Shown here one piece after another: positions 155 to 27,798 of a stretch of 45,242 nucleotides of DNA. How positions within the stretch are numbered: the stretch's first letter is position 1; each line of letters begins with the position of its first letter. Origin of the DNA: Nemertoderma westbladi (Eukaryota; Animalia; Xenacoelomorpha); assembly GCA_032718475.1 (NCBI GenBank), contig JAUCBJ010001676.1, forward strand, positions 1-45,242, written 5' to 3'. The position numbers and the translations under genes were made by a program. The notes beneath the pieces are model-generated. The model saw nothing but the letters and a program-made list of their open reading frames with translations. It had not been told where the DNA came from and did no database searches.

Positions 155-650
155 CTTTACTTTACTTTACTTTACTTTACTTTACTTTACTTTACTTTAC
201 TTTACTTTACTTTACTTTACTTTACTTTACTTTACTTTATTTTACTTTACTTTACTTTACTTTACTTTACTTTACTTTACTTTACTTTACTTTACTTTAC
301 TTTACTTTACTTTACTTTCGTATACTTTACTTTACTTTACTTTATTTTACTTTACTTTACCTTACTTTACTTTACTTTACTTTACTTTACTTTACTTTAC
401 TTTACTTTACTTTACTTTACTTTACTTTACTTTACTTTACTTTACTTTATTTTACTTTACTTTACTTTACTTTACTTTATTTTACTTTACTTTACTTTAC
501 TTTACTTTACTTTACTTTACTTTACTTTACTTTACTTTACATTACTTTACTTTACTTTACTTTACTTTACTTTACTTTACTTTACTTTACATTACTTTAC
601 TTTACTTTACTTTACTTTACTTTACTTTACTTTACTTTACTTTACTTTAC
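155..650 (+). repeat. (TTTAC)n microsatellite, ~99 units, ending directly at the acceptor AG (651-652)
   Basis: Directly visible pentamer array; ...tttactttacAG|GCGGAG. Confidence 0.98.
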
Positions 651-652
651 AG

Positions 653-883
653 GCGGAGTACCTCCACTCTCTCCGGGCTCTGAACGCTGTACACAACGCG
701 AACCATTCCTCCCCCTCCCAATCTCGTGAACGTATCAACCGTGTAGAGATTGCCCTGTTGGCCTTAGTTAACGTTATAAAGAACAACGCCGGCACCGAGT
801 TACAATGTATCAGCCATTTCCGACTGCTATTCTCTTTGCTACAACTCGATGGTTGTGGGAAACTGCAGCAACGAGCGTTAGAT
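653..883 (+). CDS. DNAJC13: DNAJC13/RME-8 coding exon (AEYLHSL...QQRALD), phase 0-0; gene starts upstream of the window
   Basis: AG at 651-652, GTAAGT at 884; 231 nt; peptide resembles the RME-8 C-terminal armadillo-like region and splices in frame to the next exon. Confidence 0.9.
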
Positions 884-1254
884 GTAAGTGTTGGTGATTC
901 GCTAAATATATCATTTTATATGTATCATTTAAAGGATGTAAATTACCAGATTGCAAATAGTCAGCTTGGTTAAAAAAATCGTGTGGGAGTGGTACTGTCT
1001 AGTGGAAAGGTAAGAATGTGTTCTACAATATTCACTTTATATTACATTTACCAACTTAACTTAAATTGAAGGCCTCGCCTTATTACTATAAACACAATAC
1101 ATTACTTTATTTCCAAGTGAATAACGTAACATGCGCTGTAGTACCGGTAACATAAGCGAACGAAAATTAAAAAATACAACTTTTTATTAATAATTTTATC
1201 TCATACGTTTCTTTTTGGTTTCATAATCTTTAATATTTTTGTACTACATTACAG

Positions 1255-1429
1255 GTAATTGCATTAGTTACGGCTAACCATATGTGCATTACCAGTATTG
1301 CCGATTCCGCTGTTCTTCCATATTTACTGATGGTGACGGAAAGTTTGGTATCCAGTCGGTTGTCTGTTTTATCTGCATTACAAGCCCTCGCATCAAACAC
1401 TAAAATTATTAAGGAATCCGTTAATAAAG
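1255..1429 (+). CDS. DNAJC13: DNAJC13 exon (VIALVTANHMCITSIADS...ALASNTKIIKESVNK/G), phase 0-1
   Basis: tacAG acceptor, GTTAGC donor at 1430; 175 nt open frame; ALASNTKIIKE motif typical of RME-8. Not in the ORF track. Confidence 0.9.
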
Positions 1430-1451
1430 GTTAGCAATCTCTGCAATCTAA

Positions 1452-1696
1452 TTGTTTACCCTCGTTGCTAGGTACTCCCTTTTATTTGTTTATCTCCGTT
1501 GCTAGGTGCTCTAACTTACTTTGTTTACCCCCGTTGCTAGGAGATCTAGTTTACTTTGTTTACCCCCGTTGCTAGGTGCTCTAATTTACTTTGTTTACCC
1601 CCGTTGCTAGGTGCTCTAACTTACTTTGTTTACCCCCGTTGCTAGGTGATCTAGTTTACTTTGTTTACCCCCGTTGCTAGGTGCTCTAATTTACTT
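1452..1696 (+). repeat. 35-bp minisatellite, ~7 copies, spanning the intron/exon acceptor
   Basis: Unit TTGTTTACCCCCGTTGCTAG|GTGCTCTAATTTACT; AGs end at 1471, 1505, 1540, 1575, 1610, 1645 and 1680; only the last gives the open exon. Confidence 0.95.
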
Positions 1697-1881
1697 GCTC
1701 GATATGTTCTGTAACGCCACCATACCCCAGGTCCGCGAACTCACCGTAGAAGTTTTCTCCAAGTTTATGGCTGACAAACTCGTTGGTCCTAAAATTCGTA
1801 TATTATTAATGAAATTCTTGCCGCCGATATTTATGGACGCGATGAGGGACAGCGCTGCTACTGTGGTACATATGTTCGAAG
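1681..1881 (+). CDS. DNAJC13: DNAJC13 exon ([12 protein letters not shown]...[14 protein letters not shown]...HMFE/G), phase 1-1
   Basis: Highly conserved RME-8 motifs [34 protein letters not shown]; AG at 1679-1680, GTGAGT at 1882. Confidence 0.95.
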
Positions 1882-2000
1882 GTGAGTAGATAGTTTACAT
1901 TTCATTTCCCAGACGCCAGATTATCCATACAATCTGTATACTGGAAATGCCTATACGCAAAATATTTATAAGTATAGATTCAGGAAATATATTCGTCAAT

Positions 2001-2073
2001 GACGTCCAGGTGGGATCGAACTGGTGACCTCCGCATTGGAAGTCTGACGCTCTAACCATTCAGCTATCGGCTC
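2001..2073 (-). mobile_element. tRNA-derived SINE head or tRNA pseudogene
   Basis: Minus strand GAGCCGATAGCTGAATGGTTAGAGCG...CCAGTTCGATCCCACCTGG has Pol III A and B boxes, but acceptor and anticodon stems pair poorly. Confidence 0.65.
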
Positions 2074-2333
2074 TTATAAAAGATAGGCCTGAAAATAATA
2101 TTTGATACCTTGTATATCCGCAATTTACATCCTCATGGCCTCCCACCTGCCAATACCGTAATCTGCTAGCAACCATTATAGTGCTCAACCCTAACTGAAC
2201 TTGGCCGTCAATGAATAAATATGTTAAAAAATGTTAATATCCAAACTAATCTAACACTTAATAAGAATTGGCGTCATTATAGTTATTGATGATATATATT
2301 ATTTGTGTTTAAATATTTATTTAATTATTTTAG

Positions 2334-2424
2334 GTGTACACGAGAATCCTGAATTAATTTGGAAGGAAGAAGCCCGGGAGAAGGTCTGTACGGTAACGGC
2401 GAGAATGAAACAATCCTTCTGCAA
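2334..2424 (+). CDS. DNAJC13: DNAJC13 exon (GVHENPELIWKEEAREKV...SFC/K), phase 1-2
   Basis: HENPELIW motif; tttTAG acceptor, GTTAGT donor at 2425; phase matches the exon at 8222. Confidence 0.93.
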
Positions 2425-2607
2425 GTTAGTGTAACTCGCTCTAAATCACGAGAAGTTGCCGAATTTAAGTTAAATTTTAGTCAAATCATTGGAATTAGGT
2501 CTTTTCGAGTTGAACCCAACTGTTAATATAGTAGCAACCAATGTCAGTGTGAATTAATAGTGAGAGTCACGTCGTTAAAAAGTGTGGCACGACAAAGAAT
2601 ATTCAAC

Positions 2608-5600
2608 CTGTAATGTTTTTCTCTATCCATGCCCCTAATGTTATTGTCTGCCTCTGTAACGTTTTTCACTATCCATGCCCCTAATGTTATTGTCTGTCTC
2701 TGCAACGTTTTTGTCCATCCCTTTCCCTGTAACGTTTTTCTCTATCCATGCCCCTAATGTTATTGTCTGTCTCTGTAACGTTTTTGTCCATCCCTTTCTC
2801 TGTATAACGTTTTTCTCTATCCATGCCCCTGTAATGTCATTGTCTGTCTCTGTAACGTTTTTCTCTATCCATGCCCCTAATGTTATTGTCTGTCTCTGTA
2901 ACGTTTTTGTCCATCCCTTTCTCTGTATAACGTTTTTCTCTATCCATGCCCCTGTGATGTTATTGTCTGTCTCTGTAACGTTTTTCACTATCCATGCCCC
3001 TAATGTTATTGTCTGTCTCTGCAACGTTTTTGTCCATCCCTTTCTCTGTAACGTTTTTCTCTATCCATGCCCCTGTAATGTTATTGTCTGTCTCTGTAAC
3101 GTTTTTCTCTATCCATGCCCCTGTGATGTTATTGTCTGTCTCTGTAACGTTTTTGTCCATCCCTTTCTCTGTAACGTTTTTCTCTATCCATGCCCCTGTA
3201 ATGTTAATAATGTCTGTCTCTGTAACGTTTTTCTCTATCCATGCCCCTGTGATGTTATTGTCTGTCTCTGTAACGTTTTTCTCTACCCATGCCCCTGTAA
3301 TGTTATTGTTTGTCTCTGTAACGTTTTTCTCTATCCATGCCCCTGTAATGTTATTGTCTGTCTCTGTAACGTTTTTGTCCATCCCTTTCTCTGTATAACG
3401 TTTTTCTCTATCCATGCCCCTGTAATGTTATTGTCTGTCTCTGTAACGTTTTTCTCTATCCATGCCCCTAATGTTATTGTCTGTCTCTGTAACGTTTTTG
3501 TCCATCCCTTTCTCTGTATAACGTTTTTCTCTATCCATGCCCCTGTGATGTTATTGTCTATCTCTGTAACGTTTTTCACTATCCATGCCCCTAATGTTAT
3601 TGTCTGTCTCTGCAACGTTTTTGTCCATCCCTTTCTCTGTAACGTTTTTTCTACCCATGCCCCTGTAATGTTATTGTCTGTCTCTGTAACGTTTTTGTCC
3701 ATCCCTTTCTCTGTAACGTTTTTCTCTATCCATTCCCCTGTAATGTTATTGTCTGTCTCTGTAACGTTTTTCTCTATCCATGCCCCTGTAATGTTTTTGT
3801 TTGTCTCTGTAACGTTTTTTCTACCCATGCCCCTGTAATGTTATTGTCTGTCTCTGTAACGTTTTTGTCAATCCCTTTCCCTGTAACATTTTTCTCTATC
3901 CATGCCCCTGTAATGTTATTGTCTGTCTCTGTAACGTTTTTCTCTAGCCATGCCCCTGTAATGTTTTTCTCTATCCATGCCCCTAATGTTATTGTCTGTC
4001 TCTGTAACGTTTTTGTCCATCCCTTTCCCTGTAACGTTTTTCTCTATCCATGCCCCTAATGTTATTGTCTGTCTCTGCAACGTTTTTGTCCATCCCTTTC
4101 TCTGTAACGTTTTTCTCTATCTATGCCACTGTAATGTTATTGTCTGTCTCTGTAACGTTTTTGTCCATCCCTTTCTCTGTAACGTTTTTCTCTATCCATG
4201 CCCCTGTAATGTTATTGTCTGTCTCTGTAACGTTTTTCTCTAGCCATGCCCCTGTAATGTTATTGTTTGTCTCTGTAACGTTTTTTCTACCCATGCCCCT
4301 GTAATGTTATTGTCTGTCTCTGTAACGTTTTTGTCCATCCCTTTCTCTGTAACGTTTTTCTCTATCCATGCCCCTGTAATGTTATTGTCTGTCTCTGTAA
4401 CGTTTTGTCCATCCCTTTCTCTGTAACGTTTTTCTCTATCTATGCCACTGTAATGTTATTGCCTGTCTCTGTAACGTTTTTGTCCATCCCTTTCTCTGTA
4501 ACGTTTTTCTCTATCCATGCCCCTGTAATGTTATTGTCTGTCTCTGTAACGTTTTTGTCCATCCCTTTCTCTGTAACGTTTTTCTCTATCCATGCCCCTG
4601 TAATGTTATTGTCTGTCTCTGCAACGTTTTTCTCTATCCATGCCCCTGTAATGTTATTGTCTGTCTCTGTAACGTTTTTGTCCATCCCTTTCTCTGTAAC
4701 GTTTTTCTCTATCCATGCCCCTGTAATGTTATTGTCTGTCTCTGTAACGTTTTTCTCTAGCCATGCCCCTGTAATGTTATTGTTTGTCTCTGTAACGTTT
4801 TTTCTATCCATGCCCCTGTAATGTTATTGTCTGTCTCTGTAACGTTTTTGTCCATCCCTTTCTCTGTAACGTTTTTCTCTATCCATGCCCCTGTAATGTT
4901 ATTGTCTGTCTCTGTAACGTTTTGTCCATCCCTTTCTCTCTAACGTTTTTCTCTATCCATGCCCCTGTAATGTTATTGTCTGTCTCTGTAACGTTTTTGT
5001 CCATCCCTTTCTCTGTAACGTTTTACTCTATCCATGCCCCTGTAATGTTATTGTCTGTCTCTGTAACGTTTTTGTCCATCCCTTTCTCTGTAACGTTTTT
5101 CTCTATCCATGCCCCTGTAATGTTATTGTCTGTCTCTGTAACGTTTTTGTCCATCCCTTTCTCTGTAACGTTTTTCTCTATCCATGCCCCTAATGTTATT
5201 GTCTGTCTCTGTAACGTTTTTGTCCATCCCTTTCTCTGTAACGTTTTTCTCTATCCATGCCCCTGTAATGTTATTGTCTGTCTCTGTAACGTTTTTCTCT
5301 AGCCATGCCCCTGTAATGTTATTGTTTGTCTCTGTAACGTTTTTTCTATCCATGCCCCTGTAATGTTATTGTCTGTCTCTGTAACGTTTTTGTCCATCCC
5401 TTTCCCTGTAACGTTTTTCTCTATCCATGCCCCTGTAATGTTATTGTCTGTCTCTGTAACGTTTTTGTCCATCCCTTTCTCTGTAACGTTTTTCTCTATC
5501 CATGCCCCTGTAATGTTATTGTCTGTCTCTGTAACGTTTTTGTCCATCCCTTTCTCTGTAACGTTTTTCTCTATCCATGCCCCTGTAATGTTATTGTCTG

Positions 5601-7948
5601 TCTCTGTAACGTTTTTGTCCATCCCTTTCTCTGTAACGTTTTTCTCTATCCTGGCCCCTGTAATGTTATTGTCTGTCTCTGTAACGTTTTTCTCTATCCA
5701 TGCCCCTGTAATGTTATTGTCTGTCTCTGTAACGTTTTTGTCCATCCCTTTCTCTGTAACGTTTTTCTCTATCCATGCCCCTGTAATGTTATTGTCTGTC
5801 TCTGTAACGTTTTTGTCCATCCCTTTCTCTGTAACGTTTTTCTCTATCCATGCCCCTGTAATGTTATTGTCTGTCTCTGTAACGTTTTTCTCTAGCCATG
5901 CCCCTGTAATGTTATTGTTTGTCTCTGTAACGTTTTTTCTATCCATGCCCCTGTAATGTTATTGTCTGTCTCTGTAACGTTTTTGTCCATCCCTTTCTCT
6001 GTAACGTTTTTCTCTATCCATGCCCCTGTAATGTTATTGTCTGTCTCTGTAACGTTTTGTCCATCCCTTTCTCTGTAACGTTTTTCTCTATCTATGCCAC
6101 TGTAATGTTATTGCCTGTCTCTGTAACGTTTTTGTCCATCCCTTTCTCTGTAACGTTTTTCTCTATCCATGCCCCTGTAATGTTATTGTCTGTCTCTGTA
6201 ACGTTTTTGTCCATCCCTTTCTCTGTAACGTTTTTCTCTATCCATGCCCCTGTAATGTTATTGTCTGTCTCTGTAACGTTTTTGTCCATCCCTTTCTCTG
6301 TAACGTTTTTCTCTATCCATGCCCCTGTAATGTTATTGTCTGTCTCTGTAACGTTTTTGTCCATCCCTTTCTCTGTAACGTTTTTCTCTATCCTGGCCCC
6401 TGTAATGTTATTGTCTGTCTCTGTAACGTTTTTCTCTATCCATGCCCCTGTAATGTTATTGTCTGTCTCTGTAACGTTTTTGTCCATCCCTTTCTCTGTA
6501 ACGTTTTTCTCTATCCATGCCCCTGTAATGTTATTGTCTGTCTCTGTAACGTTTTTGTCCATCCCTTTCTCTGTAACGTTTTTCTCTATCCATGCCCCTG
6601 TAATGTTATTGTCTGTCTCTGTAACGTTTTTCTCTAGCCATGCCCCTGTAATGTTATTGTCTGTCTCTGTAACGTTTTTGTCCATCCCTTTCTCTGTAAC
6701 GTTTTTCTCTATCCATGCCCCTGTAATGTTCTTGTCTGTCTCTGTAACGTTTTTCTCTAGCCATGCCCCTGTAATGTTATTGTCTGTCTCTGTAACGTTT
6801 TTGTCCATCCCTTTCTCTGTAACGTTTTTCTCTATCCATGCCCCTGTAATGTTATTGTCTGTCTCTGTAACGTTTTTCTCTATCCATGCCCCTGTAATGT
6901 TATTGTCTGTCTCTGTAACGTTTTTCTCTATCCATGCCCCTGTAATGTTATTGTCTGCCTCTGTAACGTTTTTATCTATCCATGCCCCTGTAATGTTATT
7001 GTCTGTCTCTGTAACGTTTTTGTCCATCCCTTTCTCTGTAACGTTTTTCTCTATCCATGCCCCTGTAATGTTATTGTCTGTCTCTGTAACGTTTTTGTCC
7101 ATCCCTTTCTCCCGAACGTTTTTCTCTATCCATGCCCCTGTAATGTTATTGTCTGTCTCTGTATAACGTTTTTGTCCATCCCTTTCTCTGTAACGTTTTT
7201 CTCTATCCATGCCCCTGTAATGTTATTGTCTGTCTCTGTAACGTTTTGTCCATCCCTTTCTCTGTAACGTTTTTCTCTATCTATGCCACTGTAATGTTAT
7301 TGCCTGTCTCTGTAACGTTTTTGTCCATCCCTTTCTCTGTAACGTTTATCTCTATCCATGCCCCTGTAATGTTATTGTCTGTCTCTGTAACGTTTTTCTC
7401 TATCCATGCCCATGTAATGTTATTGTCTGTCTCTGTAACGTTTTTCTCTATCCATGCCCCTGTAATGTTATTGTCTGTCTCTGTAACGTTTTTGTCCATC
7501 CCTTTCTCTGTAACGTTTTTCTCTATCCATGCCCCTGTAATGTTATTGTCTGTCTCTGTAACGTTTTTGTCCATCCCTTTCTCCCGAACGTTTTTCTCTA
7601 TCCATGCCCCTGTAATGTTATTGTCTGTCTCTGTATAACGTTTTTGTCCATCCCTTTCTCTGTAACGTTTTTCTCTATCCATGCCCCTGTAATGTTATTG
7701 TCTGTCTCTGTAACGTTTTGTCCATCCCTTTCTCTGTAACGTTTTTCTCTATCTATGCCACTGTAATGTTATTGCCTGTCTCTGTAACGTTTTTGTCCAT
7801 CCCTTTCTCTGTAACGTTTATCTCTATCCATGCCCCTGTAATGTTATTGTCTGTCTCTGTAACGTTTTTCTCTATCCATGCCCCTGTAATGTTATTGTCT
7901 GTCTCTGTAACGTTTTTCTCTATACATGCCCCTGTAATGTTATTGTCT
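2608..7948. repeat. Composite intronic minisatellite of three related subunits (27+27+21 = 75 bp)
   Basis: Subunits CTGTAACGTTTTTGTCCATCCCTTTCT, CTGTAACGTTTTTCTCTATCCATGCCC and CTGTAATGTTATTGTCTGTCT in variable order. Confidence 0.97.
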
Positions 7949-8221
7949 TTGTCGGGTTGTCTATATCGGCTGTATGGCTTTTTTATCTATATAGTTATTA
8001 AGTATATACTCGAATATTAATTATAATATTAATTACGTTTTACGTTTTACGTTAAAATTTTGTCGTTTCTAATACAAAAGAGCCTATTTTTAATGTATTA
8101 CATTTATTTGGTATTGTTTAATAATAATGTAATAATATATTGTCACTTTATTTATTAATTAAGAAATTCGAAGCAGTTCATTTTGCTCAATGTTATTAAT
8201 TATTAAATATAATTTTCCCAG

Positions 8222-8429
8222 GGAGCAGAAAGCCAATCCAGATATAAATTGGCGTCTTCCGGAAGACTTCGCCGTAGTTTACGCTGATATTGAGGGAGAA
8301 TTAGTTATAGGGGGAGTTTATTTAAGATTGTACATCTCGCAACCGGCGTGGGTCCTACGGAAACCTAAAGAATTCCTTGTGGAAATATTAGATAAACTCA
8401 TTCAACTTAGCAGTTACCAAAACCCACAG
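8222..8429 (+). CDS. DNAJC13: DNAJC13 exon (EQKANPDINWRLPEDFAVVY...GGVYLRLYISQPAWVLRKPKEFL...NPQ), phase 2-0
   Basis: Conserved W.LPEDF and GGV.LR...QPAWVLRKP.EFL motifs; ttcccAG acceptor, CAG|GTAAGT donor at 8430. Confidence 0.95.
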
Positions 8430-11400
8430 GTAAGTGGGACCTGGAAATATTAGATAAACTCATTCAACTTAGCAGTTACCAAAACCCACAAGTAAGTGGG
8501 ACCTGGAAATATTAGATAAACTCATTCAACTTAGCAGCTACCAAAGCCCACAGGGAAGTGGGACCTGGAAATATTAGATAAACTCATTCAACTTAGCAGT
8601 TACCAAAACCCACAAGTAAGTGGGACCTGGAAATATTAGATAAACTCATTCAACTTAGCAGCTACCAAAGCCCACAGGTAAGTGGGACCTGGAAATATTA
8701 GATAAACTCATTCAACTTAGCAGTTACCAAAACCCATAGGTAAGTGGGACCTGGAAATATTAGATAAACTCATTCAACTTAGCAGTTACCAAAACCCACA
8801 GGGAAGTGGGACCTGGAAATATTAGATAAACTCATTCAACTTAGCAGCTACCAAAGCCCACAGGGAAGTGGGACCTGGAAATATTAGATAAACTCATTCA
8901 ACTTAGCAGTTACCAAAACCCATAGGTAAGTGGGACCTGGAAATATTAGATAAACTCATTCAACTTAGCAGCTACCAAAGCCCACAGGGAAGTGGGACCT
9001 GGAAATATTAGATAAACTCATTCAACTTAGCAGTTACCAAAACCCACAGGTAAGTGGGACCTGGAAATATTAGATAAATTCATTCAACTTAGCAGTTACC
9101 AAAACCCATAGGTAAGTGGTACCTGGAAATATTAGATAAACTCATTCAACTTAGCAGCTACCAAAGCCCACAGGGAAGTGGGACCTGGAAATATTAGATA
9201 AACTCATTCAACTTAGCAGTTACCAAAACCCACAGGTAAGTGGGACCTGGAAATATTAGATAAACTCATTCAACTTAGCAGCTACCAAAGCCCACAGGGA
9301 AGTGGGACCTAGAAATATTAGATAAACTCATTCAACTTAGCAGTAACCAAAACCCACAGGTAAGTGGGACCTGGAAATATTAGATAAATTCATTCAACTT
9401 AGCAGTTACCAAAACCCATAGGTAAGTGGTACCTGGAAATATTAGATAAACTCATTCAACTTAGCAGCTACCAAAGCCCACAGGGAAGTGGGACCTGGAA
9501 ATATTAGATAAACTCATTCAACTTAGCAGTTACCAAAACTCACAGGTAAGTGGGACCTGGAAATATTAGATAAACTCATTCAACTTAGCAGTTACCAAAG
9601 CCCACAGGGAAGTGGGACCTGGAAATATTAGATAAACTCATTCAACTTAGCAGTTACCAAAACCCACAGGTAAGTGGGACCTGGAAATATTAGATAAACT
9701 CATTCAACTTAGCAGTTACCAAAACCCACAGGTTAGTGCGACCTGGAAATATTAGATAAACTCATTCAACTTAGCAGCTACCAAAACCCACAGGGAAGTG
9801 GGACCTGGAAATATTAGATAAACTCATTCAACTTAGCAGTTACCAAAGCCCACAGGGAAGTGGGACCTGGAAATATTAGATAAACTCATTCAACTTAGCA
9901 GTTACCAAAACCCACAGGTAAGTGGGACCTGGAAATATTAGATAAACTCATTCAACTTAGCAGTTACCAAAACCCACAGGTTAGTGCGACCTGGAAATAT
10001 TAGATAAACTCATTCAACTTAGCAGCTACCAAAACCCACAGGGAAGTGGTACCTGGAAATATTAGATAAACTCATTCAACTTAGCAGCTACCAAAGCCCA
10101 CAGGGAAGTGGGACCTGGAAATATTAGATAAACTCATTCAACGCAGTTACCAAAACCCACAGGTAAGTGGGACCTGGAAATATTAGATAAACTCATTCAA
10201 CTTAGCAGTTACCAAAACCCACAGGGAAGTGGGACCTGGAAATATTAGATAAACTCATTCAACTTAGCAGCTACCAAAACCCACAGGGAAGTGGGACCTG
10301 GAAATATTAGATAAACTCATTCAACTTAGCAGTTACCAAAACCCACAGGTAAGTGGGACCTGGAAATATTAGATAAACTCATTCAACTTAGCATTTACCA
10401 AAACCCACAGGTAAGTGGGACCTGGAAATATTAGATAAACTCATTCAACTTAGCATTTACCAAAACCCACAGGTAAGTGGGACCTGGAAATATTAGATAA
10501 ACTCATTCAACTTAGCAGCTACCAAAGCCCACAGGGAAGTGGGACCTGGAAATATTAGATAAACTCATTCAACTTAGCAGTTACCAAAACCCACAGGGAA
10601 GTGGGACCTGGAAATATTAGATAAACTCATTCAACTTAGCAGTTACCAAAACCCACAGGGAAGTGGGACCTGGAAATATTAGATAAACTCATTCAACTTA
10701 GCAGCTATCAAAACCCATAGGTAAGTGGGACCTGGAAATATTAGATAAACTCATTCAACTTAGCAGTTACCAAAACCCACAGGGAAGTGGGACCTGGAAA
10801 TATTAGATAAACTCATTCAACTTAGCAGTTACCAAAACCCACAGGGAAGTGGGACCTGGAAATATTAGATAAACTCATTCAACTTAGCAGCTACCAAAAC
10901 CCATAGGTAAGTGGGACCTGGAAATATTAGATAAACTCATTCAACTTAGCAGCTACCAAAACCCATAGGTAAGTGGTACCTGGAAATATTAGATAAACTC
11001 ATTCAACTTAGCAGTTACCAAAACCCACAGGGAAGTGGGACCTGGAAATATTAGATAAACTCATTCAACTTAGCAGTTACCAAAACCCACAGGGAAGTGG
11101 GACCTGGAAATATTAGATAAACTCATTCAACTTAGCAGCTACCAAAACCCACAGGGAAGTGGTACCTGGAAATATTAGATAAACTCATTCAACTTAGCAG
11201 TTACCAAAACCCACAGGTAAGTGGGACCTGGAAATATTAGATAAACTCATTCAACTTAGCAGCTACCAAAACCCACAGGTAAATGGGACCTGGAAATATT
11301 AGATAAACTCATTCAACTTAGCAGTTACCAAAACCCACAGGGAAGTGGGACCTGGAAATATTAGATAAACTCATTCAACTTAGCAGTTACCAAAACCCAC

Positions 11401-14400
11401 AGGGAAGTGGGACCTGGAAATATTAGATAAACTCATTCAACTTAGCAGTTACCAAAACCCACAGGGAAGTGGGACCTGGAAATATTAGATAAACTCATTC
11501 AACTTAGCAGCTACCAAAACCCACAGGTAAGTGGGACCTGGAAATATTAGATAAACTCATTCAACTTAGCAGCTACCAAAACCCACAGGGAAGTGGGACC
11601 TGGAAATATTAGATAAACTCATTCAACTTAGCAGTTACCAAAACCCACAGGGAAGTGGGACCTGGAAATATTAGATAAACTCATTCAACTTAGCAGCTAC
11701 CAAAACCCACAGGGAAGTGGTACCGGGAAATATTAGATAAACTCATTCAACTTAGCAGTTACCAAAACCCACAGGTAAGTGGGACCTGGAAATATTAGAT
11801 AAACTCATTCAACTTAGCAGCTACCAAAACCCACAGGTAAGTGGGACCTGGAAATATTAGATAAACTCATTCAACTTAGCAGTTACCAAAACCCACAGGT
11901 AAGTGGGACCTGGAAATATTAGATAAACTCATTCAACTTAGCAGCTACCAAAACCCACAGGTAAGTGGGACCTGGAAATATTAGATAAACTCATTCAACT
12001 TAGCATTTACCAAAACCCACAGGTAAGTGGGACCTGGAAATATTAGATAAACTCATTCAACTTAGCAGCTACCAAAGCCCACAGGGAAGTGGGACCTGGA
12101 AATATTAGATAAACTCATTCAACTTAGCAGTTACCAAAACCCACAGGGAAGTGGGACCTGGAAATATTAGATAAACTCATTCAACTTAGCAGTTACCAAA
12201 ACCCACAGGGAAGTGGGACCTGGAAATATTAGATAAACTCATTCAACTTAGCAGCTACCAAAACCCATAGGTAAGTGGGACCTGGAAATATTAGATAAAC
12301 TCATTCAACTTAGCAGTTACCAAAACCCACAGGGAAGTGGGACCTGGAAATATTAGATAAACTCATTCAACTTAGCAGTTACCAAAACCCACAGGGAAGT
12401 GGGACCTGGAAATATTAGATAAACTCATTCAACTTAGCAGCTACCAAAACCCATAGGTAAGTGGGACCTGGAAATATTAGATAAACTCATTCAACTTAGC
12501 AGCTACCAAAACCCATAGGTAAGTGGGACCTAGAAATATTAGATAAACTCATTCAACTTAGCAGTTACCAAAACCCACAGGTAAGTGGGACCTGGAAATA
12601 TTAGATAAATTCATTCAACTTAGCAGTTACCAAAACCCATAGGTAAGTGGTACCTGGAAATATTAGATAAACTCATTCAACTTAGCAGCTACCAAAGCCC
12701 ACAGGGAAGTGGGACCTGGAAATATTAGATAAACTCATTCAACTTAGCAGTTACCAAAGCCCACAGGGAAGTGGGACCTGGAAATATTAGATAAACTCAT
12801 TCAACTTAGCAGCTACCAAAACCCATAGGTAAGTGGGACCTAGAAATATTAGATAAACTCATTCAACTTAGCAGTTACCAAAACCCACAGGTAAGTGGGA
12901 CCTGGAAATATTAGATAAACTCATTCAACTTAGCAGCTACCAAAACCCATAGGTAAGTGGGACCTAGAAATATTAGATAAACTCATTCAACTTAGCAGTT
13001 ACCAAAGCCCACAGGGAAGTGGGACCTGGAAATATTAGATAAACTCATTCAACTTAGCAGCTACCAAAACCCATAGGTAAGTGGGACCTAGAAATATTAG
13101 ATAAACTCATTCAACTTAGCAGTTACCAAAATCCACAGATAAGTGGGACCTGGAAATATTAGATAAATTCATTCAACTTAGCAGTTACCAAAACCCATAG
13201 GTAAGTGGTACCTGGAAATATTAGATAAACTCATTCAACTTAGCAGCTACCAAAGCCCACAGGGAAGTGGGACCTGGAAATATTAGATAAACTCATTCAA
13301 CTTAGCAGTTACCAAAGCCCACAGGGAAGTGGGACCTGGAAATATTAGATAAACTCATTCAAATGGGACCTGGAAATATTAGATAAACTCATTCAACTTA
13401 GCAGCTACCAAAACCCATAGGTAAGTGGGACCTAGAAATATTAGATAAACTCATTCAACTTAGCAGTTACCAAAACCCACAGGTAAGTGGGACCTGGAAA
13501 TATTAGATAAATTCATTCAACTTAGCAGTTACCAAAACCCATAGGTAAGTGGTACCTGGAAATATTAGATAAACTCATTCAACTTAGCAGCTACCAAAGC
13601 CCACAGGGAAGTGGGACCTGGAAATATTAGATAAACTCATTCAACTTAGCAGCTACCAAAACCCATAGGTAAGTGGGACCTGGAAATATTAGATAAACTC
13701 ATTCAACTTAGCAGCTACCAAAGCCCACAGGGAAGTGGGACCTGGAAATATTAGATAAACTCATTCAACTTAGCAGTTACCAAAGCCCACAGGGAAGTGG
13801 GACCTGGAAATATTAGATAAACTCATTCAAATGGGACCTGGAAATATTAGATAAACTCATTCAACTTAGCAGCTACCAAAACCCATAGGTAAGTGGGACC
13901 TGGAAATATTAGATAAACTCATTCAACTTAGCAGCTACCAAAACCCATAGGTAAGTGGGACCTGGAAATATTAGATAAACTCATTCAACTTAGCAGTTAC
14001 CAAAACCCACAGGGAAGTGGGACCTGGAAATATTAGATAAATTCATTCAACTTAGCAGCTACCAAAACCCATAGGTAAGTGGGACCTAGAAATATTAGAT
14101 AAACTCATTCAACTTAGCAGTTACCAAAACCCACAGGTAAGTGGGACCTGGAAATATTAGATAAATTCATTCAACTTAGCAGTTACCAAAACCCATAGGT
14201 AAGTGGTACCTGGAAATATTAGATAAACTCATTCAACTTAGCAGTTACCAAAACCCACAGGGAAGTGGGACCTGGAAATATTAGATAAATTCATTCAACT
14301 TAGCAGCTACCAAAACCCATAGGTAAGTGGGACCTAGAAATATTAGATAAACTCATTCAACTTAGCAGTTACCAAAACCCACAGGTAAGTGGGACCTGGA

Positions 14401-17400
14401 AATATTAGATAAATTCATTCAACTTAGCAGTTACCAAAACCCATAGGTAAGTGGTACCTGGAAATATTAGATAAACTCATTCAACTTAGCAGCTACCAAA
14501 GCCCACAGGGAAGTGGGACCTGGAAATATTAGATAAACTCATTCAACTTAGCAGCTACCAAAACCCATAGGTAAGTGGGACCTGGAAATATTAGATAAAC
14601 TCATTCAACTTAGCAGCTACCAAAGCCCACAGGGAAGTGGGACCTGGAAATATTAGATAAACTCATTCAACTTAGCAGTTACCAAAGCCCACAGGGAAGT
14701 GGGACCTGGAAATATTAGATAAACTCATTCAAATGGGACCTGGAAATATTAGATAAACTCATTCAACTTAGCAGCTACCAAAACCCATAGGTAAGTGGGA
14801 CCTGGAAATATTAGATAAACTCATTCAACTTAGCAGCTACCAAAACCCATAGGTAAGTGGGACCTGGAAATATTAGATAAACTCATTCAACTTAGCAGTT
14901 ACCAAAACCCACAGGGAAGTGGGACCTGGAAATATTAGATAAACTCATTCAACTTAGCAGCTACCAAAACCCATAGGTAAGTGGGACCTGGAAATATTAG
15001 ATAAACTCATTCAACTTAGCAGCTACCAAAACCCATAGGTAAGTGGGACCTGGAAATATTAGATAAACTCATTCAACTTAGCAGTTACCAAAACCCACAG
15101 GTAAGTGGGACCTGGAAATATTAGATAAATTCATTCAACTTAGCAGTTACCAAAACCCATAGGTTAGTGGTACCTGTAAATATTAGATAAACTCATTCAA
15201 CTTAGCAGCTACCAAAGCCCACAGGGAAGTGGGACCTGGAAATATTAGATAAACTCATTCAACTTAGCAGTTACCAAAGCCCACAGGGAAGTGGGACCTG
15301 GAAATATTAGATAAACTCATTCAACTTAGCAGCTACCAAAGCCCACAGGGAAGTGGGACCTGGAAATATTAGATAAACTCATTCAACTTAGCAGTTACCA
15401 AAGCCCACAGGGAAGTGGGACCTGGAAATATTAGATAAACTCATTCAACTTAGCAGTTACCAAAACCCACAGGTAAGTGGGACCTGGAAATATTAGATAA
15501 ACTCATTCAACGCAGTTACCAAAACCCACAGGTAAGTGGGACCTGGAAATATTAGATAAACTCATTCAACTTAGCAGTTACCAAAACTCACAGGGAAGTG
15601 GGACCTGGAAATATTAGATAAACTCATTCAACTTGCAGCTACCAAAACCCACAGGGAAGTGGGACCTGGAAATATTAGATAAACTCATTCAACTTAGCAG
15701 TTACCAAAACCCACAGGTAAGTGGGACCTGGAAATATTAGATAAACTCATTCAACTTAGCATTTACCAAAACCCACAGGTAAGTGGGACCTGGAAATATT
15801 AGATAAACTCATTCAACTTAGCATTTACCAAAACCCACAGGTAAGTGGGACCTGGAAATATTAGATAAACTCATTCAACTTAGCAGCTACCAAAGCCCAC
15901 AGGGAAGTGGGACCTGGAAATATTAGATAAACTCATTCAACTTAGCAGTTACCAAAACCCACAGGTAAGTGGGACCTGGAAATATTAGATAAACTCATTC
16001 AACTTAGCAGCTACCAAAGCCCACAGGGAAGTGGGACCTGGAAATATTAGATAAACTCATTCAACTTAGCAGTTACCAAAACCCACAGGGAAGTGGGACC
16101 TGAGATAAACTCATTCAACTTAGCAGTTACCAAAACCCACAGGGAAGTGGGACCTGGAAATATTAGATAAACTCATTCAACTTAGCAGCTACCAAAACCC
16201 ACAGGGAAGTGGGACCTGAAAATATTAGATAAACTCATTCAACTTAGCAGCTACCAAAACCCATAGGTAAGTGGGACCTGGAAATATTAGATAAACTCAT
16301 TCAACTTAGCAGTTACCAAAACCCACAGGGAAGTGGGACCTGGAAATATTAGATAAACTCATTCAACTTAGCAGTTACCAAAACCCACAGGGAAGTGGGA
16401 CCTGGAAATATTAGATAAACTCATTCAACTTAGCAGCTACCAAAACCCATAGGTAAGTGGGACCTGGAAATATTAGATAAACTCATTCAACTTAGCAGCT
16501 ACCAAAGCCCACAGGGAAGTGGGACCTGGAAATATTAGATAAACTCATTCAACGCAGTTACCAAAACCCACAGGTAAGTGGGACCTGGAAATATTAGATA
16601 AACTCATTCAACTTAGCAGTTACCAAAACCCACAGGGAAGTGGGACCTGGAAATATTAGATAAACTCATTCAACTTAGCAGTTACCAAAACCCACAGGGA
16701 AGTGGGACCTGGAAATATTAGATAAACTCATTCAACTTAGCAGCTACCAAAACCCATAGGTAAGTGGGACCTGGAAATATTAGATAAACTCATTCAACTT
16801 AGCAGCTACCAAAACCCATAGGTAAGTGGTACCTGGAAATATTAGATAAACTCATTCAACTTAGCAGTTACCAAAACCCACAGGGAAGTGGGACCTGGAA
16901 ATATTAGATAAACTCATTCAACTTAGCAGTTACCAAAACCCACAGGGAAGTGGGACCTGGAAATAGTAGATAAATTCATTCAACTTAGCAGCTACCAAAA
17001 CCCATAGGTAAGTGGTACCTGGAAATATTAGATAAACTCATTCAACTTAGCAGTTACCAAAACCCACAGGGAAGTGGGACCTGGAAATATTAGATAAACT
17101 CATTCAACTTAGCAGCTACCAAAACCCACAGGTAAGTGGGACCTGGAAATATTAGATAAACTCATTCAACTTAGCAGTTACCAAAACCCACAGGGAAGTG
17201 GGACCTGGAAATATTAGATAAACTCATTCAACTTAGCAGTTACCAAAACCCACAGGGAAGTGGGACCTGGAAATATTAGATAAACTCATTCAACTTAGCA
17301 GCTACCAAAACCCATAGGTAAGTGGGACCTGGAAATATTAGATAAACTCATTCAACTTAGCAGCTACCAAAACCCACAGGGAAGTGGGACCTGGAAATAT

Positions 17401-17840
17401 TAGATAAACTCATTCAACTTAGCAGTTACCAAAACCCACAGGGAAGTGGGACCTGGAAATATTAGATAAACTCATTCAACTTAGCAGCTACCAAAACCCA
17501 TAGGTAAGTGGGACCTGGAAATATTAGATAAACTCATTCAACTTAGCAGTTACCAAAACCCACAGGGAAGTGGGACCTGGAAATATTAGATAAACTCATT
17601 CAACTTAGCAGTTACCAAAACCCACAGGGAAGTGGGACCTGGAAATATTAGATAAACTCATTCAACTTAGCAGCTACCAAAACCCATAGGTAAGTGGTAC
17701 CTGGAAATATTAGATAAACTCATTCAACTTAGCAGTTACCAAAACCCACAGGGAAGTGGGACCTGGAAATATTAGATAAACTCATTCAACTTAGCAGTTA
17801 CCAAAGCCCACAGGGAAGTGGGACCTAGAAATATTAGATA
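8380..17840 (+). repeat. 62-bp minisatellite, ~150 copies, made of the last ~50 nt of the exon plus the 5' splice site
   Basis: Unit TGGAAATATTAGATAAACTCATTCAACTTAGCAGTTACCAAAACCCACAG|GTAAGTGGGACC; the first copy is the real exon end. Confidence 0.98.
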
Positions 17841-18029
17841 CAAATTTGTTATTCAACACGAATTTTGCATAATCACTTTTTGTGTCCGTATTTCTTCAAA
17901 CTGTCCGACTAAATAAATACGTACAGAAAGTAAAAAAAATACGCACAAAAAATAGTCCAAAGGTTCGGGATGAGTTATTTAAACTGACAAGTAAATTTAT
18001 TATGTTTTAATTCTATTTCATTTTACTAG

Positions 18030-18209
18030 GGGGAGGTTTTGGAGGCGGTTACCACAGCAACAGTGATGCTGCTCTCCAGCCACTCCCATCTGGGCGACAA
18101 CATACCGGCGTTGGGGCACCTCACACACCTTGTAAAGGCATTGGGATGTCGTAACGAGGCTGTTGTCAAGGCAATGACTAGAGTTATACATCAGATTTCA
18201 ACCAATGGG
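18030..18209 (+). CDS. DNAJC13: DNAJC13 exon (GEVLEAVTTA...IPALGHL...ISTNG), phase 0-0
   Basis: tacTAG acceptor, GTGAGT at 18210; 180 nt; D.IP.LGHL motif. Confidence 0.92.
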
Positions 18210-18379
18210 GTGAGTTTTCAGTGCAATACCTATCTGTATCTGATGTATTACGGGTGGTGTCGTAAGATCCTCTATTATAATGGCTCTGATCTTTTAGCAT
18301 GAGGTATATGGTTATGTTTTCTTTGCGGTCCGGCCGCTACTTCTTTAACATTGTTTTATTTACCGTGTATTTACCATCC

Positions 18380-18600
18380 TTGTTCCGCCTCCGCTTTGCA
18401 GGACATAGCTTTCGCCGTGAGGACCAGCCAGTGAATAATCTTGTACTTTGGCAGCCTCATGGAGTGAATAAGCATGGTGGACAGCCCATGACTTTCTTGA
18501 GACGCATCTTAAAGGACACTGGCCTTGAAGATGCGGATAATCTCGCGAAAGTCATTGGTGATAGGGAGTTGTGGCGGTGCAACTTTGTTGATCAGCCGGC
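18380..18600 (+). mobile_element. 3'-terminal fragment of a non-LTR retrotransposon ORF2 (RTE-like LINE)
   Basis: RLRFAGHSFRREDQPV..LVLWQP....G.P.TF...LKDTGL.....DRELWR matches the typical RTE ORF2 C-terminus; a (TAG)-like tract at ~18710-18740 may be its tail. Confidence 0.75.
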
Positions 18601-19134
18601 ATAGCATTCTTAATGCGCGCTGCATTGGGTTTGCCAATTGTGGATTGCATGGTGGTGTCAAAATGTTTTTGTTAAGCTGGCATAGCATCTCAATGTGCAG
18701 CGGACCGATTATAGTAGTTAGTATTAGTTATAGTAGTAGTGCCCTCCTACCCCTACCCGATGGTGGTGTTATTGCACATTCCCAGGTTCATTACGGGGGC
18801 CAATGTACTTGTACTTCCGTAATTGGTAATCTTGACTCTTAGACCCAGCGGTACAATAGGAAACTGGCTTCCGCGGGGAAGTAAAGAAAGAGTTGGTTGG
18901 TAACGGAGTCTTTAATATTGGGAGTTATAGTGGCGCCATACCTGCCTTTAAGGTAACCGCCAAGAGAGTGGAGACTTCGGGTTGTCTCCGCTTTGTCGCG
19001 TTTCCATTCATTTATCCCCTCTCATTTCTTGTCATTTTCTTTTCACCACCGTCATTGTTTCATAAACAATAAATTGTAGATTTGTATTTTAGTGTACTCA
19101 ACTGAGGCATTACTTTCATTATATCTTCATATAG

Positions 19135-19419
19135 GTCTGTGTGGAGAACATGTGCACTCAACAGTGCATCCCCCCGTTAATGGTCGCAATGAAGAAGAAT
19201 ACCGATTGCATAGTTTTAGTTTGCGAAACCTTGAACCGAATATTCTCTCGCCCTTCGACTGACCCACTCATTGGCCAAGCCATTGAGTGCGGGATTATAC
19301 CATACCTGTTGCTAATACTCGACAAACCTGTGTCGTCACTGCCTAATATCTCGGCCACAAAAGCGCAAGTAGTGAAAACGTTAAAGTCAATGTTGGAGAG
19401 TGAAAAATATGGGGAGCAG
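19135..19419 (+). CDS. DNAJC13: DNAJC13 exon (VCVENMCTQQCIPPLM...ATKAQVVKTLKSM...YGEQ), phase 0-0
   Basis: ATKAQ.VK.LK.M and YGEQ motifs; AG at 19133-19134, GT at 19420; 285 nt. Confidence 0.93.
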
Positions 19420-19460
19420 GTTTGTAAAAATATAACTTATCTATCTAATTGAAATCATAT

Positions 19461-20098
19461 AAGCCCGTGAAGCCAATTTTAAAAATCGCTTATACACATT
19501 TAATCTCAATAATTTCACACGTGGCTTAAATCAATTGAAAGCGGAGAGTCTTACACGTCTTTTGACACCACAATTAATTAAATTCAAGATGGGAAAGATT
19601 GTTGAAATTCTGTTCACAATTGCAAACTCTGCGGATTACCTGATCTGTATGCTAGCACTCAGCCCTTGCACTTGCAGCTTACACCATTTAAGTTGGGTTT
19701 ACCGGTGACTAGTGCACATTTTTAATATTCAAGTAGCCTTACCAATTATTATAGTACCGGCTGACCGGTATTAAAAGCTTTTTTAAATCTAACCTGTAGT
19801 CCTTTCCGTAATCAATACAGATTGGAATGTAGTACTGCTGCTGGAAACAGCATTTTATCAATGTTCATCATCATGAATTTATTTAATTGCCGTGTCAAAA
19901 GACGTGCAAGACTCCCCGCTTTCAATTGATTTAAGCCACGTGTGAAATGATTGAGATTATAAGTGTAGACCTACTTAAATGTATCTAAAATCACCCTCCA
20001 TAGAAACCAATATAAGAACTTATCTGAGCACTGCGTAGTGACGTCAAATATGTAGCAGCCAATCACAGCCGATTTTCAAAATTGGCCTCCCGGGCCTA
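19461..20098. mobile_element. Non-autonomous foldback/MITE-like DNA element
   Basis: Outer imperfect inverted repeats (AGCCCGTGAAGCCAATTTTAAAAATCG versus CGATTTTCAAAATTGGCCTCCCGGGCC) and inner ~100-bp inverted repeats (~19490-19590 versus ~19870-19968); possible TA TSD. Confidence 0.7.
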
Positions 20099-20208
20099 CT
20101 CAAACCCGCCATTTCGACCGTTTCCACGTGTTTTTACAAAAAAAACACACCGATACTCAAACCCGCCATTTCGACCGTTTCCACGTGTTTTTACAAAAAA
20201 AACACACC
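20097..20208. repeat. 57-bp tandem duplication
   Basis: TACTCAAACCCGCCATTTCGACCGTTTCCACGTGTTTTTACAAAAAAAACACACC occurs twice. Confidence 0.9.
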
Positions 20209-20425
20209 CCGCCACTGGATTCAGGGCACCTTGTTACCTCTTATTCGATTGTTTCTAGCCCAACAATTTTTTCGCGCACCAGCCCTAATGTAATTTATAA
20301 AAGTGGACTGTTATGAAATATTTTATCAACTATAGCAACGTGTATTAGGCTGATATAGTCCATTATACTATTTTATTGCGAGTCCAGTCCATGAATAACC
20401 TCATCTTTAATTTTGTTTGTTTTAG

Positions 20426-20525
20426 GTCAATGAACTTCTGCAGAAAAGTAGTGTTTGGGCGGAATACAGAGACCAGAAACACGATTTGTTTATAAAAGAT
20501 ACCCCAGTAGCTGGTTACTTAACTG
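20426..20525 (+). CDS. DNAJC13: DNAJC13 exon ([34 protein letters not shown]), phase 0-1
   Basis: Conserved [10 protein letters not shown] and AGYLTG motifs; tttAG acceptor, GTGAGT at 20526. Not in the ORF track. Confidence 0.95.
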
Positions 20526-23500
20526 GTGAGTTGATTTAACTATAACCCCAGTAGCGGGTTACTTAACTGGTGAGTTGATTTAACTATTTAACCCCAGTAG
20601 CGGGTTACTTAACTGGTGAGTTGATTTATCTATAACCACAGTAGCGGGTTACTTAACTGGTGAGTTGATTTAACTATAACCCCAGTAGCTGGTTACTTAA
20701 CTGGTGAGTTGATTTAACTATAACCCAGTAGCGGGTTACTTAACTGGTGAGTTGATTTAACTATAACACAGTAGCGGGTTACTTAACTGGTGAGTTGATT
20801 TAACTATAACCCCAGTAGCGGGTTACTTAACTGGTGAGTTGATTTAACTATAACCCCAGTAGCGGGTTACTTAACTGGTGAGTTGATTTAACTATAACCC
20901 CAGTAGCGGGTTACTTAACTGGTGAGTTGATTTAACTATAACCCCAGTAGCGGGTTACTTAACTGGTGAGTTGATTTAACTATAACCCCAGTAGCGGGTT
21001 ACTTAACTGGTGAGTTGATTTAACTATAACCCCAGTAGCGGGTTACTTAACTGGTGAGTTGATTTAACTATAACCCAGTAGCGGGTTACTTAACTGGTGA
21101 GTTGATTTAACTATAACCCCAGTAGCGGGTTACTTAACTGGTGAGTTGATTTAACTATAACTCCAGTAGCGGGTTACTTAACTGGTGAGTTGATTTAACT
21201 ATAACCCAGTAGCGGGTTACTTAACTGGTGAGTTGATTTAACTATAACCCCAGTAGCGGGTTACTTAACTGGTGAGTTGATTTAACTATAACCCCAGTAG
21301 CGGGTTACTTAACTGGTGAGTTGATTTAACTATAACCCAGTAGCGGGTTACTTAACTGGTGAGTTGATTTAACTATAACCCCAGTAGCGGGTTACTTAAC
21401 TGCTGAGTTGATTTAACTATAACACAGTAGCGGGTTACTTAACTGCTGAGTTGATTTAACTATAACCCCAGTAGCGGGTTACTTAACTGGTGAGTTGATT
21501 TAACTATAACCCCAGTAGCGGGTTACTTAACTGGTGAGTTGATTTAACTATAACCCCAGTAGCGGGTTACTTAACTGGTGAGTTGATTTAACTATAACCC
21601 CAGTAGCGGGTTACTTAACTGGTGAGTTGATTTAACTATAACCCAGTAGCGGGTTACTTAACTGGTGAGTTGATTTAACTATAACCCCAGTAGCGGGTTA
21701 CTTAACTGGTGAGTTGATTTAACTATAACCCAGTAGCGGGTTACTTAACTGGTGAGTTGATTTAACTATAACCCCAGTAGCGGGTTACTTAACTGGTGAG
21801 TTGATTTAACTATAACCCCAGTAGCGGGTTACTTAACTGGTGAGTTGATTTAACTATAACCCCAGTAGCGGGTTACTTAACTGGTGAGTTGATTTAACTA
21901 TAACCCCAGTAGCGGGTTACTTAACTGGTGAGTTGATTTAACTATAACCCCAGTAGCGGGTTACTTAACTGGTGAGTTGATTTAACTATAACCCCAGTAG
22001 CGGGTTACTTAACTGGTGAGTTGATTTAACTATAACCCAGTAGCGGGTTACTTAACTGGTGAGTTGATTTAACTATAACCCCAGTAGCGGGTTACTTAAC
22101 TGGTGAGTTGATTTAACTATAACCCCAGTAGCGGGTTACTTAACTGGTGAGTTGATTTAACTATAACCCCAGTAGCGGGTTACTTAACTGGTGAGTTGAT
22201 TTAACTATAACCCCAGTAGCGGGTTACTTAACTGGTGAGTTGATTTAACTATAACCCCAGTAGCGGGTTACTTAACTGGTGAGTTGATTTAACTATAACC
22301 CAGTAGCGGGTTACTTAACTGGTGAGTTGATTTAACTATAACCCCAGTAGCGGGTTACTTAACTGGTGAGTTGATTTAACTATAACCCCAGTAGCGGGTT
22401 ACTTAACTGGTGAGTTGATTTAACTATAACCCCAGTAGCGGGTTACTTAACTGGTGAGTTGATTTAACTATAACCCCAGTAGCGGGTTACTTAACTGGTG
22501 AGTTGATTTAACTATAACCCCAGTAGCGGGTTACTTAACTGGTGAGTTGATTTAACTATAACCCAGTAGCGGGTTACTTAACTGGTGAGTTGATTTAACT
22601 ATAACCCAGTAGCGGGTTACTTAACTGGTGAGTTGATTTAACTATAACCCCAGTAGCGGGTTACTTAACTGGTGAGTTGATTTAACTATAACCCCAGTAG
22701 CGGGTTACTTAACTGGTGAGTTGATTTAACTATAACCCCAGTAGCGGGTTACTTAACTGGTGAGTTGATTTAACTATAACCCCAGTAGCGGGTTACTTAA
22801 CTGGTGAGTTGATTTAACTATAACCCAGTAGCGGGTTACTTAACTGGTGAGTTGATTTAACTATAACCCAGTAGCGGGTTACTTAACTGGTGAGTTGATT
22901 TAACTATAACCCCAGTAGCGGGTTACTTAACTGGTGAGTTGATTTAACTATAACCCCAGTAGCGGGTTACTTAACTGGTGAGTTGATTTAACTATAACCC
23001 CAGTAGCGGGTTACTTAACTGGTGAGTTGATTTAACTATAACCCAGTAGCGGGTTACTTAACTGGTGAGTTGATTTAACTATAACCCAGTAGCGGGTTAC
23101 TTAACTGGTGAGTTGATTTAACTATAACCCCAGTAGCGGGTTACTTAACTGGTGAGTTGATTTAACTATAACCCCAGTAGCGGGTTACTTAACTGGTGAG
23201 TTGATTTAACTATTTAACCCCAGTAGCGGGTTACTTAACTGGTGAGTTGATTTAACTATAACCCCAGTAGCGGGTTACTTAACTGGTGAGTTGATTTAAC
23301 TATAACCCCAGTAGCGGGTTACTTAACTGGTGAGTTGATTTAACTATAACCCCAGTAGCGGGTAACTTAAATGGTGAGTTGATTTAACTATAACCCCAGT
23401 AGCGGGTTACTTAACTGGTGAGTTGATTTAACTATAACCCAGTAGCGGGTTACTTAACTGGTGAGTTGATTTAACTATAACCCAGTAGCGGGTTACTTAA

Positions 23501-23740
23501 CTGGTGAGTTGATTTAACTATAACCCCAGTAGCGGGTTACTTAACTGGTGAGTTGATTTAACTATAACCCCAGTAGTGGGTTACTTAACTGGTGAGTTGA
23601 TTTAACTATAACCCAGTAGCGGGTTACTTAACTGGTGAGTTGATTTAACTATAACACAGTAGCGGGTTTCTTAACTGGTGAGTTGATTTAACTATAACCC
23701 CAGTAGCGGGTTACTTAACTGGTGAGTTGATTTAACTATA
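20501..23740 (+). repeat. 43-44-bp minisatellite, ~74 copies, made of the last 25 nt of the exon plus the 5' splice site
   Basis: Unit ACCCCAGTAGCGGGTTACTTAACTG|GTGAGTTGATTTAACTATA; the first copy is the real exon end. Confidence 0.98.
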
Positions 23741-23859: not shown

Positions 23860-23960
23860 GTCCGGGTGTCGCCGGATATCTAACCCAAGGAACCACACAC
23901 GGGACCCGCAATGCCCCACCACCAATAGCCGACCAAGATGGGGGTTTTACTAACAGCTGA
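23860..23960 (+). CDS. DNAJC13: DNAJC13 last coding exon (GPGVAGYLTQGT...APPPIADQDGGFTNS*)
   Basis: Completes AGYLTGPGVAGYLT...PPP, the characteristic DNAJC13 C-terminus; tttAG acceptor; TGA at 23958-23960. Confidence 0.93.
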
Positions 23961-27775: not shown

Positions 27776-27798
27776 TCAGATATCGGACGAAGTTTCAC

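Follow-up and report, generated by a model that had tools for sequence, protein, structure and literature searches.

The DNAJC13 Locus and Gene Model

The DNA analyzed here (the window) is a 45,242-nt contig of Nemertoderma westbladi that contains no N and whose 5′ end falls within an intron of DNAJC13, the gene for a homolog of the RME-8 protein. The last nine exons of DNAJC13 are present, separated throughout by GT-AG introns, and join into an open frame of 523 residues. Three of the introns hold minisatellites of the type called "mirages," in which the repeated unit straddles a boundary between an exon and an intron of the gene that carries it. Each of them probably (about 80% in our estimate) began as a small tandem duplication across a splice junction and then grew by ordinary repeat turnover.

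All nine exons lie on the + strand and are numbered from the first visible one. Exons 1 (653–883), 2 (1255–1429), and 3 (1681–1881) are placed by homology and by RNA contigs, with joints from 883 to 1255 and on either side of exon 2. Exon 4 (2334–2424) is placed by an RNA contig joint that skips 452 nt, and exon 5 (8222–8429; 208 nt) by homology and by the spacing between exons 4 and 6 in an RNA contig. Joints that skip 925 and 1006 nt define exons 6 (18030–18209) and 7 (19135–19419), respectively. Exon 8 (20426–20525) corresponds to an RNA contig piece at 20424–20527 that ends at the first donor of a 44-bp array, and the last coding exon (23860–23960), which runs to a TGA stop, is placed by its open frame and by homology.

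The gene model aligns with a full-length RME-8 protein (P0130; domains RME-8_N, GYF_2, and DnaJ) over 514 amino acids at 52% identity with 7 gap positions, covering residues 1712–2219 of that protein, and all nine exons were matched by tblastn with P0130 as the query. A homolog search with exon 3 returned 223 relatives at E values up to 0.001; another relative, P0194, carries the name dnaJ homolog subfamily C member 13. The search with exon 7 gave no match, but it was limited to proteins of at most 2000 amino acids and therefore excluded full-length DNAJC13. Pfam assigned no family to any of the five single exons queried, and exon 3 had no match among solved structures. The gene is thus the 3′ end of DNAJC13, and it is transcribed and correctly spliced.

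Anatomy of the Tandem Arrays

Five arrays lie in the gene according to Tandem Repeats Finder; all are given here on the + strand, and together they occupy 18,783 of 23,807 bases (79%). The first minisatellite (1452–1696) consists of seven copies of a 35-bp unit made up of the last 20 nt of intron 2 and the first 15 nt of exon 3, and the acceptor AG is present in 7/7 copies. It takes up most of a 251-nt intron that would be only 42 nt long if the array were collapsed to one unit. This collapsed intron, at 1430–1471, suggests either a class of very short introns or the loss of intron sequence during expansion. Copies 1 and 2, which are distal to the exon, have diverged, as in concerted evolution that leaves out the edge copies.

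The second minisatellite (8380–17840) comprises 154 units of 62 bp, each corresponding to the last 50 nt of exon 5 and the first 12 nt of the following intron. A donor position is contained in 151 of these units, where it reads GT in 76, GG in 74, and AT in 1; the other 3 are short units without the site. More than 30 unit types are found, in recurring runs. In the third (20501–23740), 74 units of 44 bp combine the last 25 nt of exon 8 with the first 19 nt of intron, and GT is kept in 72/74; the exonic copy differs by one base from 72 of the 74 units. The arrays have extended the introns that hold them from about 220 nt (collapsed) to 9.6 kb for the 62-bp unit and from about 140 nt to 3.3 kb for the 44-bp unit. 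Altogether 232 junction copies are present (7 acceptors and 151 + 74 donors), with the AG or GT intact in 155. The longest word common to the three units is at most 6 nt, which argues for separate origins. The eight whole introns have 13 further junctions, for none of which does the best intronic copy match more than 14 of 24 nt.

The remaining two arrays are of other kinds. A complex minisatellite in intron 4 (2608–7948) is built of 21–29-nt subunits with periods of 48, 75, and 123; it contains no junction copy and touches no junction. The tract upstream of exon 1 (155–652) consists of about 99 units of TTTAC (154–650 in Tandem Repeats Finder) followed by the predicted acceptor AG at 651–652, the sole AG in the tract. 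Exon sequence is absent from its unit; the tract is a microsatellite that forms a pyrimidine tract and belongs to another class than the boundary copies. Directly against this tract, within the same intron, lies a Bel/Pao-type long terminal repeat (LTR) end (1–154, + strand), cut by the window start and alignable in reverse complement with the LTR at 31825.

An earlier interpretation of this locus made without database searches (the sequence-only reading) had counted four arrays anchored on splice junctions. The 35-, 62-, and 44-bp arrays conform to the definition of a mirage; the (TTTAC)n tract and the mid-intron array do not, and the number of mirages is accordingly three rather than four. 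The same reading described the units as unrelated and independent in origin, held that exon sequence is part of the unit in the three minisatellites (15, 50, and 25 nt), and estimated that with the mid-intron array some 18.8 of 24 kb is tandem repeat, all of which agrees with the present counts. It also noted that the arrays extend into the intron. This is true, but it is not separate evidence, because geometry forces the extra copies to lie there.

Splice-site Use and Reading-frame Consequences

Of six sequencing runs, four were aligned to the window: X1; X2 and X3, both from sample S2; and X4, from sample S3. None of the six is labeled as RNA on record, and X4 was assigned as RNA from the behavior of its contigs, which skip five GT-AG introns (371, 251, 452, 925, and 1006 nt) and leave unique intron DNA uncovered. 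The 251-nt skip terminates at position 1680, the last of the seven AGs in the 35-bp array. In a 2,143-nt X4 contig, window position 2425 corresponds to letter 1917 and position 18028 to letter 1711; the interval between exons 4 and 6 is exactly 208 nt, as long as exon 5, from which it follows that the first donor of the 62-bp array was used. The exon 8 piece of the same contig stops at 20527, overrunning the first donor of the 44-bp array by two letters, and the last exon starts with the same two letters, indicating that the first donor was used here also. In the dominant RNA contigs the exon-proximal site is therefore used at all three arrays. No piece is added in these contigs, which show no new intron or exon made by the duplications.

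In computed translations a stop codon lies behind every spare site. Each of the nine other AGs of intron 2 leads to a stop at residues 143–169, all other sites in the 62-bp array to a stop at residue 309, and the 73 other sites in the 44-bp array to a stop at residue 494, as compared with 523 residues for the full frame. The exon-proximal copy had previously been taken as the only one that keeps the frame. It is the only copy with which the frame stays open, but some spare copies lie at multiples of three (for example at +105 and +186 nt) and nevertheless reach a stop; the spare sites are thus closed by stops and not by frame alone. Products of spare sites may be removed by nonsense-mediated decay (NMD). 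By the 50–55-nt rule of NMD, which comes from mammals, the product of the second donor in the 44-bp array would escape, because its stop is only 30 nt before the last junction. The tolerance of more than 200 boundary copies, many with intact sites, that the sequence-only reading had proposed is in keeping with the 232 copies counted and with the use of the proximal site in RNA contigs.

Comparison with Known Repeats at Splice Junctions

The comparisons in this section draw on the available portions of the cited papers. Arrays of this type have been described in lancelets, where mirage minisatellites occur in Adh3, the globins BflGb6 and BflGb9, troponin C, and PGBD5 (PMC3087553, PMC3902484), the last with two arrays in one gene (PMC3902484). 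The lancelet mirages and those of DNAJC13 share tandem boundary copies of both donor and acceptor types (PMC3087553). In both, many but not all units keep the AG or GT (7/7, 76/151, and 72/74 in DNAJC13), regular splicing is apparently unaffected, and, as in PGBD5, more than one array can occur in a gene. The copy numbers differ, being 2–7 in the lancelet globins and PGBD5, as far as described there, and up to 74 and 154 (3.2 and 9.5 kb) in DNAJC13. The Adh3 mirage is reportedly unstable in somatic tissue. The view that the arrangement was undescribed does not hold, since it had already been named and considered possibly general in lancelets (PMC3087553).

Donor-spanning variable number tandem repeats (VNTRs) have been described in human genes, namely in F7 intron 7 (37 bp), IFI6 (6-16), CBS intron 13, LMNB2, and PDGFA (PMC1557585). 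In these, as in the donor arrays of DNAJC13, the first unit spans the exon-intron border and spare donors follow. The most upstream donor was found to win in the 50 constructs of Borensztajn et al. 2006 (PMC1557585), and it is used in F7, LMNB2, and PDGFA as it is in the 62- and 44-bp arrays. In the F7 type, a mutated first donor reportedly passes its role to the next one, a behavior known as oriented scanning. Splicing in CBS and IFI6 draws on two spare sites as well, something that the contigs of DNAJC13 could not reveal. Unlike DNAJC13, the human VNTRs as cited have from 5 to about 25 copies, occur one to a gene, and involve donors only. Because the first donor is the one chosen in human cells when many identical ones follow (PMC1557585), the special spliceosome that had been invoked for this lineage is not needed.

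Two further systems are more distant. Internal tandem repeats at exon-intron boundaries can create introns (PMC2812944); they resemble the DNAJC13 arrays in having minisatellite-sized units at exon boundaries, but in the accounts given the outcome is a new intron or a changed exon in recently formed paralogs, whereas no such alteration is seen in the DNAJC13 mRNA studied. Microsatellites at 3′ splice sites, such as (TG)n of CFTR (PMC10078293), resemble the (TTTAC)n tract as short repeats that run up to an acceptor. The (TTTAC)n tract has another motif and is about 500 nt long. A literature search that covered few subscription papers and no supplements found no genome-wide test of junction enrichment.

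The arrays of DNAJC13 are therefore a known type of repeat, unusual for their size and density, for numbering three in a single gene, and for copy numbers higher than those given in the cited passages. They extend mirages to another animal and provide one conserved gene in which, with up to about 75 intact donors and 6 acceptors to spare, the spliceosome selects the site nearest the exon. Such arrays can also mislead gene prediction.

Origin of the Arrays and Alternative Explanations

From the observed anatomy of the units, their independent sequences, the exon-proximal site use in assembled RNA, and the stops behind the other sites, the following course of events can be proposed. A duplication across one junction would keep the exon and its nearest site intact and would be near neutral, unlike one inside an exon, which would be removed. 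With short ancestral introns (about 42, 140, and 220 nt), junction-spanning seeds could make up a sizeable share of the survivors. Slippage and unequal exchange would then expand and homogenize the array; in the 62-bp array, runs of variant units recur, and in the 35-bp array the distal copies have decayed, both of which fit such turnover. Finally, an ordinary spliceosome that pairs sites across the exon would take the nearest one, and rare use of a spare site would give premature stops that are mostly cleared by decay. The choice of the last of the seven AGs would fit pairing of sites across exon 3.

Several points weigh against this account. The RNA consists of contigs of one run from another sample (S3), which may carry other array alleles. 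Contigs drop rare forms, and strict site choice is indistinguishable in them from clean-up by decay. The choice of the last of seven AGs is opposite to first-AG scanning, and for this we infer, rather than observe, an explanation. No listed read or contig spans any array, and the lengths are those assembled. Lastly, three of the four long arrays lie on junctions (P 0.012–0.059), and survivorship alone may not suffice to account for this.

The last point was evaluated against a null in which the arrays were collapsed to one unit and placed randomly, seeds internal to exons were dropped, and spans of a single junction were counted. The chance per array was 0.11–0.33, depending on the unit length and on the removal of interspersed repeats. 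When a 57-bp duplication in intron 7 is included (3/5), P becomes 0.029–0.131. The null is rough, and these P values precede any correction for the choice of a striking window from a very large scan; the excess at junctions over survivorship is suggestive. It could reflect a lineage that seeds duplications at splice junctions above chance, through breaks or slippage linked to transcription or splicing, which would add to the account given above rather than replace it. That the origin of mirages is unclear and the phenomenon possibly general in lancelets (Ebner et al., PMC3087553, in the part available) leaves room for such a process. We nevertheless consider it unlikely, because the evidence comes from a single gene picked post hoc from a very large scan, P rises to as much as 0.13 once the 57-bp duplication is included, and the breakpoints follow no common rule: the 62-bp array ends with a 15-nt part-unit, and the others have only 3–7-nt overlaps. 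The process that amplifies junctions proposed by the sequence-only reading is accordingly not established (P 0.01–0.13 under the rough null, before correction for the choice of the window). Arrays also occur away from junctions, namely the 5.3-kb mid-intron array and 2,205 of 21,282 bases in ten intervals outside the gene. Shared microhomology at breakpoints was considered separately and rejected as inconsistent between arrays.

If a genome-wide excess at junctions were found, it would have consequences for explaining how mirages arise, a matter that Ebner et al. (PMC3087553) regard as unclear, and for intron lengthening. A broader form of the proposal is that in this animal, and perhaps in many invertebrates and sharks, the birth of minisatellites at junctions far exceeds what survival alone would give, and that the copying of boundaries is a main driver of intron growth. 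This we hold only as a doubtful conjecture; were it correct, splicing or transcription would leave a mutational footprint on DNA, and mirages would represent a process measurable across the genome.

Under another explanation selection acts on the spare sites, either by weakening them so that splicing is protected or by retaining them as decoys through which DNAJC13 output is tuned. Consistent with weakening, GT is lost in 75/151 donors of the 62-bp array, copies 2–4 are all weakened, and variable positions are more frequent within the donor (6/9) than elsewhere in the unit (14/53; Fisher P 0.026); a protective change in the second repeat of human CBS is also indicated by a title cited in PMC1557585. 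Other 9-nt windows of the 62-bp unit also reach 6 variable positions, however, and P climbs to 0.06 when variants must be seen at least 2 times and to 0.33 when the minimum is 5. In the 44-bp array 72/74 donors are kept with no excess variation (P 0.6), and turnover can spread one founding change. Selection on the spare sites thus appears improbable, and as a candidate, selection against spare donors was rejected as weak, its signal fading at the stricter thresholds.

Run X1 shows no differences from the window in unique DNA and may be its source; it was therefore not counted as independent. Runs X2 and X3, in contrast, show many differences from the window in unique sequence and count as independent of it. 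Contig depths, which are not copy numbers and for which the two S2 runs disagree in size, are raised over the units in both. The 62-bp unit has a depth of 509–927 in X2 and 123–137 in X3 as compared with 22–37 in the flanks, the 44-bp unit 635 and 665 as compared with 21–30, and the 35-bp unit up to 83 and 693 as compared with 23–42. The raised unit depth in an independent sample indicates that the arrays exist in more than one animal and are not an invention of the assembly.

That the arrays are assembly artefacts, or much shorter than assembled, is accordingly most unlikely, even with nothing reading across them and with S2 depth ratios for the 62- and 44-bp units that are far below those of X1, since lower depth, itself no copy number, is equally consistent with shorter alleles. 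Besides the raised depth in two samples, a 43-nt variant of the 44-bp unit is found in contigs of both X1 and X2, and the 35-bp array occurs in S2 in two versions, of which the first matches the window exactly over 1432–1525 and the second departs from it by 15 changes and 4 gap letters. The more than 30 unit types of the 62-bp array, in their recurring runs, likewise argue against an artefact. Contigs that join the last 62-bp copy to unique intron carry 29–30 letters on the array side, under the 31-letter bar.

Re-splicing at the 35-bp array, with initial use of an upstream AG and a second round at the junction that yields the same final mRNA, is very improbable. The AG is followed by GT in 6/7 copies, and a mature contig cannot separate this route from the direct one, but the regenerated donors fit the consensus poorly beyond GT, and the route is inapplicable to both donor arrays, in whose units no pyrimidine tract precedes the AG. 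Origin by junction-spanning duplication, followed by turnover and ordinary splicing to the nearest site, is the explanation that we prefer.

Other Elements in the Window

Within the gene, high-copy interspersed repeats lie in introns 3, 6, and 7 (1991–2160, 18385–18700, and 19460–20290), with summed depths thousands of times those of the flanks. The first looks tRNA-derived by eye; ARAGORN found no tRNA gene in it. Intron 7 also contains nested inverted repeats of 122 and 29 nt that resemble a miniature inverted-repeat transposable element.

Downstream of the gene, a broken, intronless fragment similar to terminal nucleotidyltransferases (27340–27790; MTPAP-like central domain, E 4.5e-10) is likely a retrocopy. 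It is followed by a minisatellite (27799–28490) of 15 copies of a 44-bp unit, each with a 23-nt near-palindrome, which lies off splice junctions and ends beside a TTAA-CCC motif reminiscent of a piggyBac end. Two 15-bp mini-arrays, mutually inverted, are found at 28881–28992. An intronless cytochrome P450 gene (29301–30809; PF00067, E 1e-101) is similar to CYP17, CYP1, and CYP2, and its best named relatives, from lancelets, echinoderms, acorn worms, and molluscs, are at most 40% identical to it (36% for Branchiostoma). Such values suggest an invertebrate host, probably other than a lancelet, that lacks closely related annotated species.

The right end of the window, on the - strand, is occupied by a Bel/Pao LTR retrotransposon (31825–45242) recognized by its LTR pair and Pfam hits. 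The two LTRs are nearly identical, with a single substitution and one insertion of 7 nt in 277 nt, and the right one is cut by the window end. A 1,651-amino acid gag-pol frame has hits to DUF1759, protease, reverse transcriptase, Peptidase_A17, and integrase; DUF5641 is in a separate frame, and a further frame of 303 amino acids has no Pfam hit. The LTR end at 1–154 is related to this element but diverged from it and opposite in orientation. A 41/34-bp minisatellite within the element (34344–34964) indicates that arrays form in non-genic DNA too.

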